Below are positions 18,870 through 58,225 of a stretch of DNA of 64,000 nucleotides, one piece after another (within the stretch, counting starts at the first letter, position 1; each line of letters starts with the position of its first letter). A program made the position numbers and the translations under genes. The notes beneath the pieces were generated by a model that saw nothing but the letters and a program-made list of their open reading frames with translations, had not been told where the DNA came from and made no database searches. The DNA lies in contig JBNRMN010000068.1 in NCBI GenBank assembly GCA_050309605.1, forward strand, positions 1-64,000, read 5' to 3'. Source of the stretch: Anaerohalosphaeraceae bacterium. GTDB taxonomy: Bacteria; Planctomycetota; Phycisphaerae; Sedimentisphaerales; Anaerohalosphaeraceae.

Positions 18870-18944
18870 CGGGGTGTAGCTCAGCTTGGCTAGAGCGTCT
18901 GGTTTGGGACCAGAAGGCCGCAGGTTCGAATCCTGTCACCCCGA
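18870..18944 (+). tRNA. tRNA-Pro (anticodon UGG), 3' CCA not encoded
   Basis: Acceptor stem CGGGGTG/CACCCCG, D-arm AGCTCAGCTTGGCTAGAGC, anticodon arm TCTGG-TTTGGGA-CCAGA, T-loop GGTTCGAATCC. Confidence 0.97.
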
Positions 18945-53378: not shown

Positions 53379-54224
53379 AACGCCCACCACGGCGATGCCG
53401 AGTTTGTCGGCCAGGGCCAGTGTGTCGGGTTTATCGATGATCAGGGTGCGCTCTTTCTCCACAGCCAGACACGCGGCCTTATGGCGTTTGAGGCTCTCGA
53501 TGGTGTCCGGCCCGACGCAGGGCACATCAAACCGCATATCCTGGTTGGGTTTGGCGGCCTTGAGCAGTGTCCAGCCGCCTTTTTTGCACAGTACCCCGGC
53601 CCGCTCAATCATCTCGGCGGTGCCTTCGATGGCCTCAACGGCGATAATCTCCCGCTCGCGCACGGCGATGGCCTGTCCGATATCCAGCCGTCCGATCTCC
53701 AGCACCATCGGCCAGCCGAACTCAATGTCCGCCCGGACAGAAGCTGACGGTTGTGTGCGGGTCATCACGCCTTCATGTGCCATATGGTCTTTGCAATACA
53801 TCATCGAATTCTCCAGAATGATCCCGCCGGAGGCAAATTCCTCGGCAATGGCGTTGAGCACTGAATCGTTGCGTTTGTCCCTGCCCCGCAGCCGTACATA
53901 CCAGATCCGCAGCGCCCGCCAATCGGGCAGATATTTGAGAATCCGCCACGGCGTAAAGAGGCGGGTTTTGGCGACGCGCCCGACCATAATCGCGCGGCTC
54001 ACACCGCAGCGCCGCAGCTTTCGCAGCCAGCCGCCCGGACGGGCAATCGCCCCGCGAAAAAACACATCGACGTGCTTGGCCAGATCCGGCGAGGCATTGT
54101 CGGCCAGGCCCACACAGACCACCTTCAATCCCGCCCGCCGGGCACCGTCGGCAACCATAAACGGCAGGCGTCCTTCGCCGGCGATCAGTCCCAAAACCGG
54201 AGTATCAGTTTCCGTCCGAGCCAC
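53376..54224 (-). CDS. lpxI: UDP-2,3-diacylglucosamine diphosphatase, LpxI family
   Basis: LGLIAG.G.LP, G.V.K, DIGQ, AVEAIEGT, KPNQDMRFDVP.VG..T; GTG start at 54224 inferred. Confidence 0.9.
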   Translation of the reverse strand: MARTETDTPVLGLIAGEGRLPFMVADGARRAGLKVVCVGLADNASPDLAKHVDVFFRGAIARPGGWLRKLRRCGVSRAIMVGRVAKTRLFTPWRILKYLPDWRALRIWYVRLRGRDKRNDSVLNAIAEEFASGGIILENSMMYCKDHMAHEGVMTRTQPSASVRADIEFGWPMVLEIGRLDIGQAIAVREREIIAVEAIEGTAEMIERAGVLCKKGGWTLLKAAKPNQDMRFDVPCVGPDTIESLKRHKAACLAVEKERTLIIDKPDTLALADKLGIAVVGV

Positions 54225-55242
54225 GGTCGCGCTTGTCCATCCTGCGTTCAAGGTCTCTGATCTTCTTGCGGAGTTCCGGCAGGTACTCGATGAGGCTGTA
54301 GGCGCGTCGGGCCTTGCCGGCATCGATGGCCGGAGCGCCGACAAGGGTCGCCCCGTCCGGCACGTCGTTAATCACCCCGGCCTGCGCCCCGATCCGCACG
54401 CCGTTTCCGATTTTTATGTGGCCGACCACGCCCGCCTGGCCGCCGAGGACACAGTGATGGCCGAGGGTAGCCGATCCGGATATCCCCACCTGCGGCACCA
54501 GCAGACAGTACGGTCCGATCCGCGCGCCGTGGCCGATGGCGACCGCGTCACCGATCTTGCTGCCTTGGCCGATGACGGTGTCGTCCAGCGTGCCGCGCTC
54601 AATGGCGCAGCCGGCGCCGATTTCCACGTCATCTTCCAGAACCACCCCTCCGATTTGCGGAATCTTGTGATGCACCCCTTTGTGTGTGGCAAAACCAAAC
54701 CCGTCTTGCCCAACCGAGGCGTTGGATTGGATAATGACCCGATGACCGATGCGGCAGCCGTCATAAATCACCGCATTCGGATAAAAAATACAGTCATCGC
54801 CGATCTGGACATTCGGTCCGATGCTCACGCCGGGGTAAAAATAGCAGTTGCAGCCGACCGTGACATTCTGGCCGATACTGACAAACGCCGCCGCCTGAGT
54901 GCCTTTGCCTAAACGGGCCGACGGGGCGATGTCGGCCTTGTCGGACACACCGACGGGAGGGTGTTCCCGATGGCCGTGCAGCAGGACGACCACCTGCATA
55001 AAGGCGTAGTACGGATCGTCGGTAATGATCTGAACCGCCGAGGTCGTCACCGGCATCGACACCAGCACCGCCGCCGCCTGAGTGGCCTGCACCTTGGGGG
55101 TGTATTTGGGGTTGCTCAAAAAAGTAATCTGCCCCGGCCCGGCGCTGTCCAGCGTCGAGGCGGCACGGATGGTGACCGATTCACTGCCCAGCACCCGACC
55201 GCCGACATAATCGGCGATTTCTCTTACGGTTTTTGTCTGCAT
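54205..55242 (-). CDS. lpxD: UDP-3-O-(3-hydroxymyristoyl)glucosamine N-acyltransferase
   Basis: ITFL.N.KY, DPY.AF, hexapeptide repeats, DGFGF, KIPQ.G.V, IGH. Confidence 0.95.
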   Translation of the reverse strand: MQTKTVREIADYVGGRVLGSESVTIRAASTLDSAGPGQITFLSNPKYTPKVQATQAAAVLVSMPVTTSAVQIITDDPYYAFMQVVVLLHGHREHPPVGVSDKADIAPSARLGKGTQAAAFVSIGQNVTVGCNCYFYPGVSIGPNVQIGDDCIFYPNAVIYDGCRIGHRVIIQSNASVGQDGFGFATHKGVHHKIPQIGGVVLEDDVEIGAGCAIERGTLDDTVIGQGSKIGDAVAIGHGARIGPYCLLVPQVGISGSATLGHHCVLGGQAGVVGHIKIGNGVRIGAQAGVINDVPDGATLVGAPAIDAGKARRAYSLIEYLPELRKKIRDLERRMDKRDRGSDGN

Positions 55243-55521
55243 TCCGAATCATTTCTGTCTGAATAATCTCATTTTTCGCTGATTATACCGATTTTTGTCG
55301 TATCGTCAAACGCCTGTGCTCGCGAAATCTTGACAGGGCGTGCAAGTGCGACTGCCTTATACCGGTTTGCCCTCGTGCTTAAACCGATCGAGTCATCGCA
55401 AGCGAAGATGATTGTCAGATAAATTTGTATAAATTCAAAATTTTTTTGGCTAAGTATGTTCTGAAAAATAAAACATAAGTCATTTTATATAAATTATTTA
55501 AAAATATCTGCTTCATTGGGC

Positions 55522-55549
55522 TTGACATAAATAAAAATTTAATTAGAAT
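55522..55549 (+). promoter_or_regulatory. Sigma70-like promoter with an AT-rich upstream region
   Basis: TTGACA-N16-TAGAAT. Confidence 0.55.
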
Positions 55550-55589
55550 AGAAGAGACATTAGGGAACATTATTTGCTAAAAATAAATT

Positions 55590-56050
55590 TGTGAGTCCTC
55601 CTGATGAGCCGGATGACACGATACAGTGTGAAGCGGTTTATACGCGTCGTTCGGACTCATTTGTGAGCGTTGAATACACAGGAGTATTTGTGGGATTTTA
55701 CGTCGTCTATAACATGTTCTTTCGGCTTGTTCGGCGCGTCGTTTGGCTGATTGATTGGCGCGCCGTACGCCGCGGCGATTCCCGCGTGTGTATTTCGTTT
55801 GCTTATATCCCGAAGGGCTTGCAGCATCACAGTGCCATGTTGTTTTCCGGTATGTCGCCGCCGAAGTTTGAATGCCAGCTTCGTTAGTGCCCCGGCGGCA
55901 GGTCGGCAGCGTATCTGAATTGCCTTTCGTTTCGACTCGATAAGGATGCAGCGGACAGTCTCTGCGCACAGCACATCACCGGACTGACCGTACGTTTGGC
56001 CCCAAGGACAAAGGTTGCGTCCTGCGCCCTACCCCGAACAGTCAGCCGGT
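55590..56050 (+). ncRNA. Candidate structured non-coding RNA or long 5' leader (family unassigned)
   Basis: Six or more consecutive stems with G-U pairs on the + strand; no convincing ORF; lies just after a promoter. Confidence 0.4.
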
Positions 56051-56137
56051 TTATGCCGCCGATACATCGCCGACGAAATAAAACTTCGACACAACAATAA
56101 TCAGAAAGCAACTGTTGCGTTGATACCGGAGGTTACA

Positions 56138-56368
56138 ATGATGGACAAATGGAGTATTTCCATAAGGACGCTGGATGAAGAATTGATTCATAAGAATATC
56201 ATTGAAGCAGCGGATTTGGCAACTGCAAAACAACAATGTCTGAATATCTGCAAAGATCAGTTTAAAGACAAGGATAGGCTATATCTTGAATCGCGAGGCA
56301 AAGGACGCTATGTGATTGTCTCAGACCTGGACGACGTCGGGCAGGTCAGAATTGAACGTATGAACTGA
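56138..56368 (+). CDS. Small hypothetical protein (76 aa)
   Basis: GGAGG SD before ATGATG; globular alpha/beta-like composition. Confidence 0.7.
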   Translation: MMDKWSISIRTLDEELIHKNIIEAADLATAKQQCLNICKDQFKDKDRLYLESRGKGRYVIVSDLDDVGQVRIERMN

Positions 56369-56492
56369 CAGGGTTCATTAAAAAAACACAGGCCGACAGA
56401 TGCCTTATCCATAACGCATTGATGCGCAAGATGACAAAGCAGAAAAACCTGGTTTCACACGGCATTCAAACTTTAATTATGAGGCGAAGCCC

Positions 56493-56915
56493 ATGATCAA
56501 ATGTGAAAATAAACCCAGTGTTATCAAAAGACCGCCGATTCTGTCGGAGATGGATTATTACCGACTATTATCCACGATTCAGCATGAAAAACAACGCGGC
56601 ACAACCAGCAGACGACGTTTGAGCCGGTTCCGTCATCTGCTTAAGAATGTGCATATGTATCCGATCCGTTGGTTTCCGGTGGATGTCGTTTCAATGAATT
56701 CGGTCTTTGAGTTGACCGTCTCAGGCGATGCTCTGTATATCGTGCGGCTGGTCTATCCGCACGAGGCAAATTTTAAAGAGCGGAAACTATCCGTCTTGTC
56801 AAGTTTGGGGATGCGACTGTTCGGCAGACGAACGGGTGATTCCCTGCGCTGCGGTCAGCTTCGTATCGGAAAAATTTTGTATCAACCGGAACTGTACGAC
56901 CAATTTGATTTGTAA
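56493..56915 (+). CDS. Rnk-like protein (GreA/GreB C-terminal domain)
   Basis: DVVSMNS, LVYP.EA, LSVLS.LG..LFG...GD, ILYQPE. Confidence 0.8.
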   Translation: MIKCENKPSVIKRPPILSEMDYYRLLSTIQHEKQRGTTSRRRLSRFRHLLKNVHMYPIRWFPVDVVSMNSVFELTVSGDALYIVRLVYPHEANFKERKLSVLSSLGMRLFGRRTGDSLRCGQLRIGKILYQPELYDQFDL

Positions 56916-57193
56916 GCCGGACGGTTTTCAGGCGATCCAATGGATTCGGGTACACAAAGCTGCCGGTTTTCTGAAAGATCACTGTCTGAAATTGAGGCAA
57001 TATGATGAATAACAAGACACCATTCAGGACACATTACCCTCCGGCCGGTTGGCGGCTCTGTCGGAGATGCCCTGCCTTTCGATCCGGCTGCGGCCGCGTT
57101 GAGCGCCGTTCGGGAATGTGTGGACGTCCGTTACCGACATCGCAAAGCGGCGAAACAGCCGCAGCAGTGACCCACCGGCATTCAAGTTGACAG

Positions 57194-58225
57194 TCAATGT
57201 ATCTCCAGTCGCGTTGCACCAAGCTGGCCGCAGGCGGCTTTGATAGATCGCCCCCGGCGATACCGGATGACGGCCTCAATGCCGGCGTTTGCCAGAATGT
57301 CAGCGAATGCCCGAATTCGGCGGGGCGGCGAAGGGGCGAACGGACAGCCGGCAAACGGATTCATCTCGATCAGGTTGACATTGACGTTGAGGCCTTTGAG
57401 CAGGTCCGTCAGCAAGCGGGCCTGGTCGTTGCTGTCATTGACGGTATGAACCAAACAGTATTCAATCGTTATCCGCCGTCTGGTTTGCCGCTGGTAGTTC
57501 CTCAAGGCCTCCAGCAACCGGCCAAGCGGGTATTTTTTGCCGATGCGCATCAGTTTTTGCCGGGTGGAGTCATCGGCGGCGTGCAGCGAGACCGCCAGTC
57601 GGGGATGCAAAGACCACCCGGCCAGTGTGTCGATGCCTTCCGGCAGGCCGCAGGTCGAGAGGGTAATGCGGCGAATGCCGATGTCAGCGCCGTGCCGGTC
57701 GTTGAGCAGTTCAACCGACCGCATCACCGCGTCAACATTGTCCAGCGGCTCGCCCATACCCATATAGACGACGTTGTGGATCGTTTGGCACACCCGCTGA
57801 GCCTGATAGACCTGATCGACGATCTCGGCGGACGTCAGATTGCGGTCGAAGTTCAGTTGGCCTGTCGCGCAGAACGCACAGCCCATCCGGCACCCGGCCT
57901 GCGTCGAAAGACACAGTGTATTCCGCCCGCGGTCGCTGAGCCGGACTGTCTCAATCCGACCGCCGCCGGGCAGGTCAATGACGAATTTTGTCGTGCCGTC
58001 AGGGTCGTCATGATGTTCAGCAAGTTGTAACGCCGAAATGAAGTAATCGTCCTGAACCAGCCGGTCTCGAAAGATCGCCGGCAGGGGGGTAATGTGCTTG
58101 AGGTCGGTGATGTGTTTTTGATGGATAAATGAAAACAGATAGTCCGCCAGAAATTGCTTCTGCCCATAAGAGGCAACCAGCCGACACAGCTCGGCCGGGC
58201 GATATTGTTTCAGGTCTTTATCCAT
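57194..58225 (-). CDS. rlmN: 23S rRNA/tRNA adenine C2-methyltransferase RlmN
   Basis: DGT.K, C.STQ.GCRMGCAFCATG, MGMGEPL.N, SLHA, EY, NLI..N, AACGQL. Confidence 0.93.
   Translation of the reverse strand: MDKDLKQYRPAELCRLVASYGQKQFLADYLFSFIHQKHITDLKHITPLPAIFRDRLVQDDYFISALQLAEHHDDPDGTTKFVIDLPGGGRIETVRLSDRGRNTLCLSTQAGCRMGCAFCATGQLNFDRNLTSAEIVDQVYQAQRVCQTIHNVVYMGMGEPLDNVDAVMRSVELLNDRHGADIGIRRITLSTCGLPEGIDTLAGWSLHPRLAVSLHAADDSTRQKLMRIGKKYPLGRLLEALRNYQRQTRRRITIEYCLVHTVNDSNDQARLLTDLLKGLNVNVNLIEMNPFAGCPFAPSPPRRIRAFADILANAGIEAVIRYRRGRSIKAACGQLGATRLEIH

Follow-up and report, generated by a model that had tools for sequence, protein, structure and literature searches.

The subject of this study is a stretch of 64,000 nucleotides (nt) of DNA from an Anaerohalosphaeraceae bacterium (contig JBNRMN010000068.1, hereafter the window) and, within it, the segment at 55556-56137, which precedes a gene for a protein of 76 amino acids (aa) and a gene for an Rnk-like protein. 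A preliminary description had treated this segment as a candidate novel large structured noncoding RNA (ncRNA) without a credible open reading frame (ORF). Our analyses led to a different view. The segment contains a 65-codon upstream ORF (uORF) at 55690-55887, with AGGAG placed 5 nt before its GTG start codon, and this frame is kept in six lineages; the uORF is very probably a real, selected coding element. Judging from sequence comparisons, we are inclined to believe that the leader at 55556-56137 carries a cis-regulatory leader peptide of the pausing type. A promoter, presence in RNA libraries, an ORF with a Shine-Dalgarno (SD) sequence and start codon, recurrence of a peptide motif with synonymous codon variation, and linkage to the head of an operon were all observed. 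The features concerned are listed below, where G002 denotes a diverged genome of the same genus.

55522-55549, + strand: sigma-70-type promoter (TTGACA at 55522-55527, a 16-nt spacer, and TAGAAT at 55544-55549; 11/12 matches).
55556-55689, + strand: part of the 5′ leader ahead of the uORF, holding the box GGGAACATTATTTGCT and the hairpin TGAGTCC/GGACTCA.
55680-55684, + strand: SD sequence AGGAG of the uORF, 5 nt before the GTG start.
55690-55887, + strand: uORF, 65 codons followed by TAG, encoding MGFYVVYNMFFRLVRRVVWLIDWRAVRRGDSRVCISFAYIPKGLQHHSAMLFSGMSPPKFECQLR.
55843-55863, + strand: motif codons F52-S-G-M-S-P-P58 (TTT TCC GGT ATG TCG CCG CCG), followed by a 7-codon variable tail.
55888-56137, + strand: untranslated spacer of 250 nt between the uORF and the 76-aa gene, holding the hairpin at 55979-56049, with 48% identity to G002.
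56128-56132, + strand: SD sequence GGAGG preceding the 76-aa gene; predicted to be largely base-paired in the ensemble of leader folds (mean probability of being unpaired, 0.27).
56138-56368, + strand: gene for the 76-aa protein, the first regulated gene, of no known family.
56493-56915, + strand: Rnk-like gene, 140 aa, with a GreA/GreB C-terminal domain (PF01272).

When positions 55243-57193 were searched against 40 related genomes, the region was found in three genomes of the same genus (G006, G002, and G003). G006 matched at 98% over the full length. G002 matched at about 69% over the two genes, together with a single 82-nt island of 76% identity inside the supposedly noncoding stretch; the locus is collinear in this genome, where about 940 nt separate lpxD from the 76-aa gene, and the Rnk-like gene and rlmN come next. 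At the place of the uORF, G002 has a 66-codon frame, and the two peptides share 46% identity over 67 aa, which was the best match of all six-frame ORF pairs. Two overlapping frames also gave matches of 33 and 56 residues between G002 and the genome of the window (G000), and these are regarded as by-products of the DNA similarity. The two uORF peptides agree chiefly near their ends, in the pattern A.IP.GLQ.H.A..FSGMSPP, after which come unrelated tails of 7 and 8 residues. Conservation of the leader between G000 and G002 peaks in the part that encodes the C-terminal portion of the uORF (55813-55863, 80% identity); the tail has 42% identity and the spacer 48%.

Among the 301 genomes of the order that were sampled, 22 had relatives of the 76-aa protein: 7 belong to the same family as the window and 15 to a sister family. 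The uORF was followed through six lineages, namely G000/G006, G002, G018, G137, G089, and the metagenome locus L068, and its anatomy (SD sequence, start codon, and an open frame of 49-66 codons) is kept in all of them. The SD and start are AAGGAG-N5-ATG in G002 (at the aligned position), AGGAGG-N7-ATG in G018, AGGGA-N5-ATG in G137, GGAAAGGA-N6-ATG in G089, and AAGGA-N7-ATG in L068. The operon-head uORFs of G018, G137, and G089, which comprise 49-65 codons and each possess an SD sequence and an ATG, end in HKLFSGMSPPVGA, ALFAGYSPPVRLPSMV, and VFCGCSPPASRPLARLS, respectively, in each case directly before the stop codon. L068 represents an AT-rich lineage; its uORF of 54 codons ends in CVFFAGYSPPLRTV before the stop, and lies about 115 nt before the first Rnk-like gene. 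Across the six lineages, the motif takes the form F-[SAC]-G-[MYC]-S-P-P, and its codons vary synonymously (Gly as GGT, GGG, GGC, or GGA; Ser as TCG, TCT, or TCC; Pro as CCG or CCC; Phe as TTT or TTC). In L068, for example, the motif is encoded by TTT GCA GGA TAT TCC CCG CCC. The rest of the peptide and a tail of 3-9 codons drift from lineage to lineage. The joint alignment gives a weak hint of a His common to the peptides some 10 residues ahead of the Pro-Pro.

The recurrence of the motif was then assessed with a pattern, F.G.SPP, that had been fixed on G000 and G002 only. Across 34.7 kb of sense-strand sequence lying upstream of the operon at 22 other loci, the pattern matched 4 times, compared with a mean of 0.043 and a maximum of 1 in 300 dinucleotide shuffles. 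A motif-bearing uORF stands at the head of the operon in six of the seven family genomes that have the 76-aa gene; in the remaining genome (G093), a contig end truncates the locus. Over the motif, only the uORF frame is open (58-107 codons) and conserved in all six lineages, and the antisense frames of L068 span no more than 17-32 codons. Antisense genes were considered and rejected: the − strand frames over the motif are not kept open across lineages, and a 130-aa ORF on the − strand has no Pfam match.

When a hidden Markov model (HMM) of five uORF peptides was run against 70 genomes of the family, only the training loci scored high. Among 12 candidate hits, three weak ones (L042, L052, and one on contig C22 of G000) lay antisense inside large ORFs and were attributed to chance, and the nine others sat in unrelated frames. 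The C22 site (L076:1105-1239) has an exact FSGMSPP in a frame of 44 codons that runs antisense to an ORF of 514 aa; we judge this occurrence to be due to chance, though an exact 7-mer is rarely expected.

The promoter TTGACA-N16-TAGAAT, which the preliminary description had placed ahead of the segment, is real. It has 11/12 matches, and its hexamers are kept in G002 as TTGACT and TAGATT at the aligned place; comparable TTGACA promoters precede the leaders of G018 and of the metagenome relative L071. Contigs from three RNA libraries of two studies span 55556-57032 with three gaps. Library X15 contributed contigs at 55556-55775, 55805-55956, 56072-56630, and 56834-57032, library X19 one at 55618-55892, and library X18 two at 56048-56299 and 56782-56967. 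These contigs run from 7 nt past the −10 box through both operon genes, and lpxD and rlmN are uncovered; missing cover (55174-55543 and beyond 57032) is not to be read as a finding. Given that such contigs establish neither a start nor a strand, and that RNA libraries may hold DNA, they give only a weak hint of a transcription start near 55556.

Just after the predicted start lies the box GGGAACATTATTTGCT (55564-55579). Its G002 version is GGGAACGTTATTTGCT, its flanks are not conserved, and in the alignment of G000 with G002 it reads GGGAAC[A/G]TTATTTGCT.

A conserved uORF in a leader is a classic regulatory device, and we propose a model of this kind. In this model, the 582 nt at 55556-56137 would form the 5′ leader of an operon made up of the 76-aa gene and then the Rnk-like gene, transcribed from the promoter at 55522-55549. 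Its functional core would be the translated 65-codon uORF, with F-x-G-x-S-P-P kept at the peptide level, and not a large RNA fold. The nascent F-S-G-M-S-P-P, with its Pro-Pro at the peptidyl-transferase center, may slow or arrest the ribosome 7 codons before the stop, and the dwell time of that ribosome would set the extent to which the 76-aa and Rnk-like genes are transcribed or translated. Within the 250-nt spacer, the route could be attenuation, access of Rho, or remodeling of the RNA. As to the signal sensed, a guess would be general elongation capacity, or the status of elongation factor P (EF-P) or prolyl-tRNA.

Loci outside the six lineages bear on this model as well. In the metagenome relative L071 (L071:1669-1900), a promoter TTGACA-17-TATATT is followed by a 23-codon uORF that ends in LYGYVP and a stop. 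A canonical terminator with an 8-bp stem and a run of eight T residues lies 32 nt past this uORF, and an alternative hairpin (−14.4 kcal/mol, z −3.24), the 5′ arm of which begins 4 nt after the stop, is also predicted; by its sequence, L071 is a complete, textbook attenuator layout.

In the sister family, a different conserved uORF of about 56 codons, with the SD sequence GAGGTG, was found at 13 of 15 loci (L014-L016, L018-L026, and L028), 146-186 nt before the 76-aa gene. This second type has the form NC.YPCNPAGPAF..KHP[HR]LPR[NS][ED]D plus a variable tail, with the motif NKHP[HR]LPR[NS][ED]D (KHPHLPR), and its motif codons switch among AGA, CGA, CGC, and AGG for Arg and among CTG, TTG, and CTT for Leu. 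The spacer between this uORF and the 76-aa gene contains a long-range helix of 10 pairs, of which 7 are changed on both sides among the 13 relatives (alignment A5, columns 91-103 with 182-195). Covariation of the helix was 0.281, compared with 0.191 for shuffles (0 of 500 reached 0.281) and at most 0.119 for slid partners. The helix cannot be aligned to the window. In these relatives, the mechanism probably involves RNA structure.

Several findings weigh against a pausing leader peptide in the window. Differences between the G000 and G002 uORFs are nearly flat over codon positions 1, 2, and 3 (22, 17, and 24, respectively, in 57 codons), suggesting that most of the peptide is near neutral and without strong purifying selection; this pattern alone would not establish coding. 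Constraint is limited to about 7-15 residues of the uORF. In the sister-family uORF, the corresponding differences were 0.289, 0.313, and 0.366. An exhaustive HMMER search of 1.84 billion representatives returned 3 hits, one of which is a repetitive 674-aa protein, and revealed no family past the uORF itself and the G002 type. The motif was not found in G273, and a homologous uORF in the G064/L069 lineage, whose upstream DNA and HSIR segment match those of L068, ends in RCYPDID without the motif. Moreover, the position at which the RAPP-like (RQH) motif, R/Q/H-[AGS]-P-P, has its defining Arg (or Gln or His) holds M in G000, G002, and G018, Y in G137 and L068, and C in G089, and for this reason the uORF is not filed as RAPP-like. 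In the G000 proteome, RAPP (1 observed, 4.9 expected) and RGPP (0 observed, 3.4 expected) are depleted, as published; among its 2,218 long ORFs, G[MYC]SPP occurs 0 times against 0.7 expected, an expectation so low that the test has no power.

The coupling of the uORF to the downstream genes is a further point of difficulty, and we infer translation, pausing, the signal, and the sign and route of control from sequence. A model in which the stalled ribosome frees the SD sequence of the 76-aa gene proved inconsistent across lineages and was left unsupported. In G000, the predicted pairing of TTTCCGGTAT (55844-55853) with ATACCGGAGG (56123-56132), at −16.8 kcal/mol, ranks first among 463 windows. 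The best SD partner overlaps or adjoins the motif in G018, G137, and G089; the motif is not the best SD partner in G002 or L068. Swapping SD sequences among lineages was not significantly worse (158 of 720 permutations). In a partition-function model, masking by the stalled ribosome did not raise the predicted SD accessibility in any of the six lineages, the free and masked values being 0.27 and 0.22, 0.21 and 0.23, 0.33 and 0.37, 0.36 and 0.37, 0.31 and 0.25, and 0.25 and 0.22. A Rho-loading tract in the spacer was likewise rejected: a stretch with C in excess of G at about 56028-56087 is in the top 1% of locus windows in G000, but the feature is inconsistent across 14 loci. A terminator scan found no canonical terminator in the spacer of the window, and its sole + strand hit in the leader (55771-55786) is inside the uORF. 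Finally, the X15 contig depth was 17.7 over the 76-aa gene and 2.3-4 over the leader, which is not what simple attenuation predicts, with the caveat that contig depths cannot rank regions.

The main rival to a leader peptide is a free-standing micro-protein. The 65-codon frame would then encode a small protein that works with the operon products, for example a linear-motif peptide bound by the 76-aa or the Rnk-like protein. Such a protein would leave the ORF, SD sequence, and motif conserved just as a leader peptide would; the frame always shares one transcription unit with the 76-aa and Rnk-like genes, and the codon data cannot separate a micro-protein from a regulatory nascent peptide. However, only about 7 residues near the C-terminus are kept, and the length (49-66 aa), the N-terminal two thirds, and the tail all drift. 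The 81-250 nt of untranslated RNA before the next gene are also unlike the usual operon packing, and in L071 the uORF has shrunk to 23 codons with a terminator/antiterminator pair directly after it. In addition, what the sister family conserves at the corresponding position is a markedly different sequence, which is easier to explain by peptides that interact with the ribosomal tunnel than by the ligand of a conserved partner. In light of these differences, we consider a free-standing protein rather unlikely.

A second rival is that the leader acts mainly as structured RNA (riboswitch-like, as a protein-binding attenuator, or as a stable ncRNA) and that the ORF is incidental. This is close to the headline of the preliminary description, which rested on six sets of stems in the segment. 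All six fold as claimed once excised, and two of the hairpins are given here.

55592-55659, + strand: hairpin TGAGTCC/GGACTCA, which folds, with z −2.17 for the 120-nt segment concerned and 11/22 pairs broken in G002.
55979-56049, + strand: the largest hairpin, followed by TTTAT; −27.3 kcal/mol, z −1.54.

Folding beyond chance was not borne out. The minimum free energy of 55560-56137 gave z-scores of −1.28 on the + strand and −1.16 on the − strand, and 8 and 16 of 100 shuffles, respectively, folded as well. Among nineteen 120-nt segments, the lowest z-scores were −2.44 (+ strand, 55680-55799) and −2.64 (− strand), and the next on the + strand was −2.17 (55560-55679); 13 control segments from each flanking gene had lowest values of −1.5 and −1.6. 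The two leader segments that reach z −2.2 and −2.4 speak for structured RNA, as does the covarying 10-pair helix in the spacer of the 13 sister-family relatives. Hand-picked hairpins had z-scores of −0.6 to −2.9 against mononucleotide shuffles, values that are biased because the hairpins were picked. When the whole window was scanned against Rfam at gathering thresholds, only a tRNA at 18870 was found; between 55200 and 56600 at E ≤ 10, the only match was mir-6012 on the − strand (E 4.7, 17.8 bits against a gathering threshold of 59), which is noise. Rfam holds rnk-leader and greA-leader families, and no match to either was listed in the scan of 55200-56600.

Conservation of the stems could be followed in G002, the sole diverged relative that can be aligned to the window, and the pair-conservation test consequently has low power. 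The 85 pairs examined in this genome include 36 broken, 10 compensatory, and 4 gapped ones (by stem set, broken pairs number 11/22, 4/12, 6/10, 2/7, 4/13, and 9/21, and compensatory pairs 3, 1, 1, 0, 2, and 3). The largest hairpin sits in the least conserved part of the leader (33-50% identity to G002), and four of the six stem sets fall wholly or partly inside the 65-codon uORF. In contrast, the best-kept segment varies synonymously and keeps its frame, SD sequence, and start, which RNA pairing does not explain. A z-score near zero and a lack of covariation had been named beforehand as results that would speak against an ncRNA, and both are essentially what was found.

Given that the region has no Rfam match, folds within the range of shuffles, has stems that are not kept in G002, and consists to about one third of a conserved coding frame, a novel large structured ncRNA is unsupported, and a leader acting mainly as structured RNA is in our view quite unlikely. 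Of the preliminary observation as a whole, the promoter and the stems stood, and the absence of an ORF, the above-chance folding, and the conservation of the stems did not. Its fallback suggestion, a regulatory leader of great length serving the small ORF and the rnk-like gene downstream, fits the conserved promoter, the RNA contigs, and the conserved uORF. The case also carries a caution: a GC-rich leader with many visible stems folded at chance level, and the real signal was a short coding frame.

The region might also have no function, being a long, fast-evolving intergenic spacer in a variable insert of lower GC content, with hairpins and an ORF that arose by chance. Folding at chance level, absence of the operon from its site in G003, low GC content, and flat codon-position differences would all agree with this. 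On the other hand, the motif matched 4 times against 0.043 expected in independent loci, the SD sequence and start are kept in six lineages, the promoter is kept in G002, and contigs from RNA libraries lie on the region, so we hold this explanation to be slightly less likely still. That the segment is the remnant of a decayed protein-coding gene is very improbable: gene callers do predict a 98-aa protein (P0003) in this region and long frames are open on both strands, but the ORF is intact with SD sequence and start in six lineages, the tested frames have no match in Pfam or NCBIfam, the sole relative among the 1.84 billion representatives is the short G002 ORF, and the homology to a decayed gene that had been named beforehand as a refuting result was not found with Pfam, NCBIfam, or HMMER. 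The uORF family itself has no entry in Pfam or NCBIfam.

The leader and operon lie between two genes, as follows.

54205-55242, − strand: lpxD (Pfam LpxD and hexapeptide repeats).
57194-58225, − strand: rlmN, convergent.

The gap between lpxD and the next gene of annotated size, which starts at 56138 on the + strand, is 896 nt. GC content is 0.37-0.52 between 55300 and 57000 and 0.58-0.65 in the flanks. In the genus-mate G003, the operon is absent at this site, RHS-type (RHS-repeat-type) genes follow lpxD, and only a 46-nt match beside lpxD remains. Because of the GC content below that of the flanks and the absence from the G003 site, the unit of uORF, 76-aa gene, and Rnk-like gene looks like a variable insert between lpxD and rlmN. 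Facing lpxD on the − strand, a divergent promoter-like site, TTGACG-16-TATAAT (11/12 matches), is present at 55282-55309, and the surrounding 55258-55332 has 63-77% identity to G002, above its neighbors.

The 140-aa protein matched PF01272 with E 1.1e-08 and 35.4 bits (cut-off 26.9). Against the NCBIfam equivalog NF004396 (nucleoside diphosphate kinase regulator), it scored 48.8 bits, under the cut-off of 109, and it is therefore termed Rnk-like here and not Rnk. The GreA/GreB C-terminal domain is encoded by four genes in G000, and two of these form a tandem pair on a different contig, with a TTGACA promoter of its own. This Rnk-like pair (contig C34, L072:1150-2243) is preceded by TTGACA-N17-TACTAT and by some 130 nt of leader, in which the only frames are mini-ORFs and an F.G.SPP uORF was not seen. 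In other genera the operon is larger, typically with the order Rnk-like, 76-aa, Rnk-like, Rnk-like.

The 76-aa protein belongs to a family of 32 protein clusters, all annotated as hypothetical and without a Pfam match; the family is unannotated, restricted to Phycisphaerae, and always adjoins Rnk-like paralogues. An AlphaFold model of the protein (predicted local distance difference test score 95) shows a beta-beta-alpha-beta-beta-beta arrangement. Structural searches with this protein gave no convincing relative: the best Foldseek E-value was 0.022, the best VIA-align Z was 7.4 (AcrIE2), inside the stated noise range of that tool, and no score in the Atlas search was above 0.83.

Taking the two uORF types together, we tentatively raise the possibility that F-x-G-x-S-P-P and KHPHLPR represent a new class of arrest or pausing leader peptides in Phycisphaerae, which would report elongation capacity (sufficiency of EF-P or prolyl-tRNA, or general ribosome stress) and set the levels of the Rnk-like factor and its 76-aa partner. 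If true, the ribosome would feed back directly on the machinery of transcription elongation: through a conserved Pro-Pro leader peptide before genes of the GreA/Rnk family, ribosome performance would be tied to presumed secondary-channel factors of RNA polymerase, in a poorly studied and mostly uncultured lineage. The general kind of element, a uORF encoding a leader peptide, is known; the motif, the target genes, and the understudied lineage are new. A full-text literature search found no paper that connects rnk-type genes preceded by a uORF or leader peptide with Phycisphaerae or Anaerohalosphaeraceae; arrest-peptide surveys might list such cases in their supplements, which were outside this search.

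Known bacterial arrest peptides mostly guard protein-export genes, and the anatomy of the tna leader is a uORF with a conserved Pro near its end, followed by a long untranslated spacer. The comparisons below refer to the portions of the cited papers that were available. Among systems defined by RNA, greA and rnk are listed among the genes most often preceded by attenuators (PMC2965389, Naville & Gautheret 2010), and that rnk and greA leaders of other phyla are described there as RNA attenuators is the remaining point in favor of a structured RNA in the window. The leader studied here resembles the rnk and greA leaders of Proteobacteria and Firmicutes in being a long 5′ leader before a gene of the rnk/greA family, and L071 has a terminator/antiterminator pair. 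It differs in having no Rfam match, no canonical terminator in the spacer, and a length of 582 nt; in the available text of PMC2965389, those leaders are described by terminator/antiterminator structures, and no conserved peptide-coding ORF is named.

With TnaC/tna and toiL, whose uORFs sense ribosome stalling and act through Rho according to the excerpts of PMC8429421 and PMC12121999, the leader shares a conserved Pro near the end of the uORF and then a long untranslated spacer (about 200-250 nt). Unlike in these systems, the proposed stall would occur 7 codons before the stop and not at the stop, no consistent rut-like C-rich tract was seen, and no known ligand is associated with it. A leader of the trpL or hisL type does not fit, as only two adjacent Pro codons are present, the conserved residues are mostly not Pro, and the spacer has no canonical terminator.

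The arrest peptides offer the closest comparison in the arrangement of the peptide itself. By the available account, their mark is a conserved motif at the C-terminus of a small uORF, in many cases with Pro-Pro, and an LPPP class occurs in Phycisphaerales (PMC10987492, Fujiwara 2024); RAPP-like motifs have been reported upstream of genes of diverse function, few of which have been worked out (PMC12992588, Fujiwara 2025). Arrest peptides of the Sec/YidC type differ from the present case in their targets, since the genes downstream here encode Rnk-like factors of the RNA-polymerase-channel type and the 76-aa protein, and in that arrest is here a prediction. Among the criteria for arrest peptides in the accessible part of PMC10987492, a secretion signal or transmembrane segment concerns Sec/YidC monitors and is not general to arrest peptides; on visual inspection, Arg and Asp break up the hydrophobic stretches of the uORF. 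By the other criteria, the uORF is small, of unknown function, and directly upstream of its putative targets at the head of an operon in six lineages, and its C-terminal sequence is kept while the rest varies. As in the Pro-Pro arrest peptides (RAPP-like ApdA/ApdP, SecM RAGP, and uA_LPPP), a small uORF carries a Pro-Pro motif near its C-terminus with few unconserved codons after it, the N-terminal part is variable, and the uORF stands at the head of the genes that it putatively controls; the host belongs to the same class of bacteria in which the LPPP class occurs.

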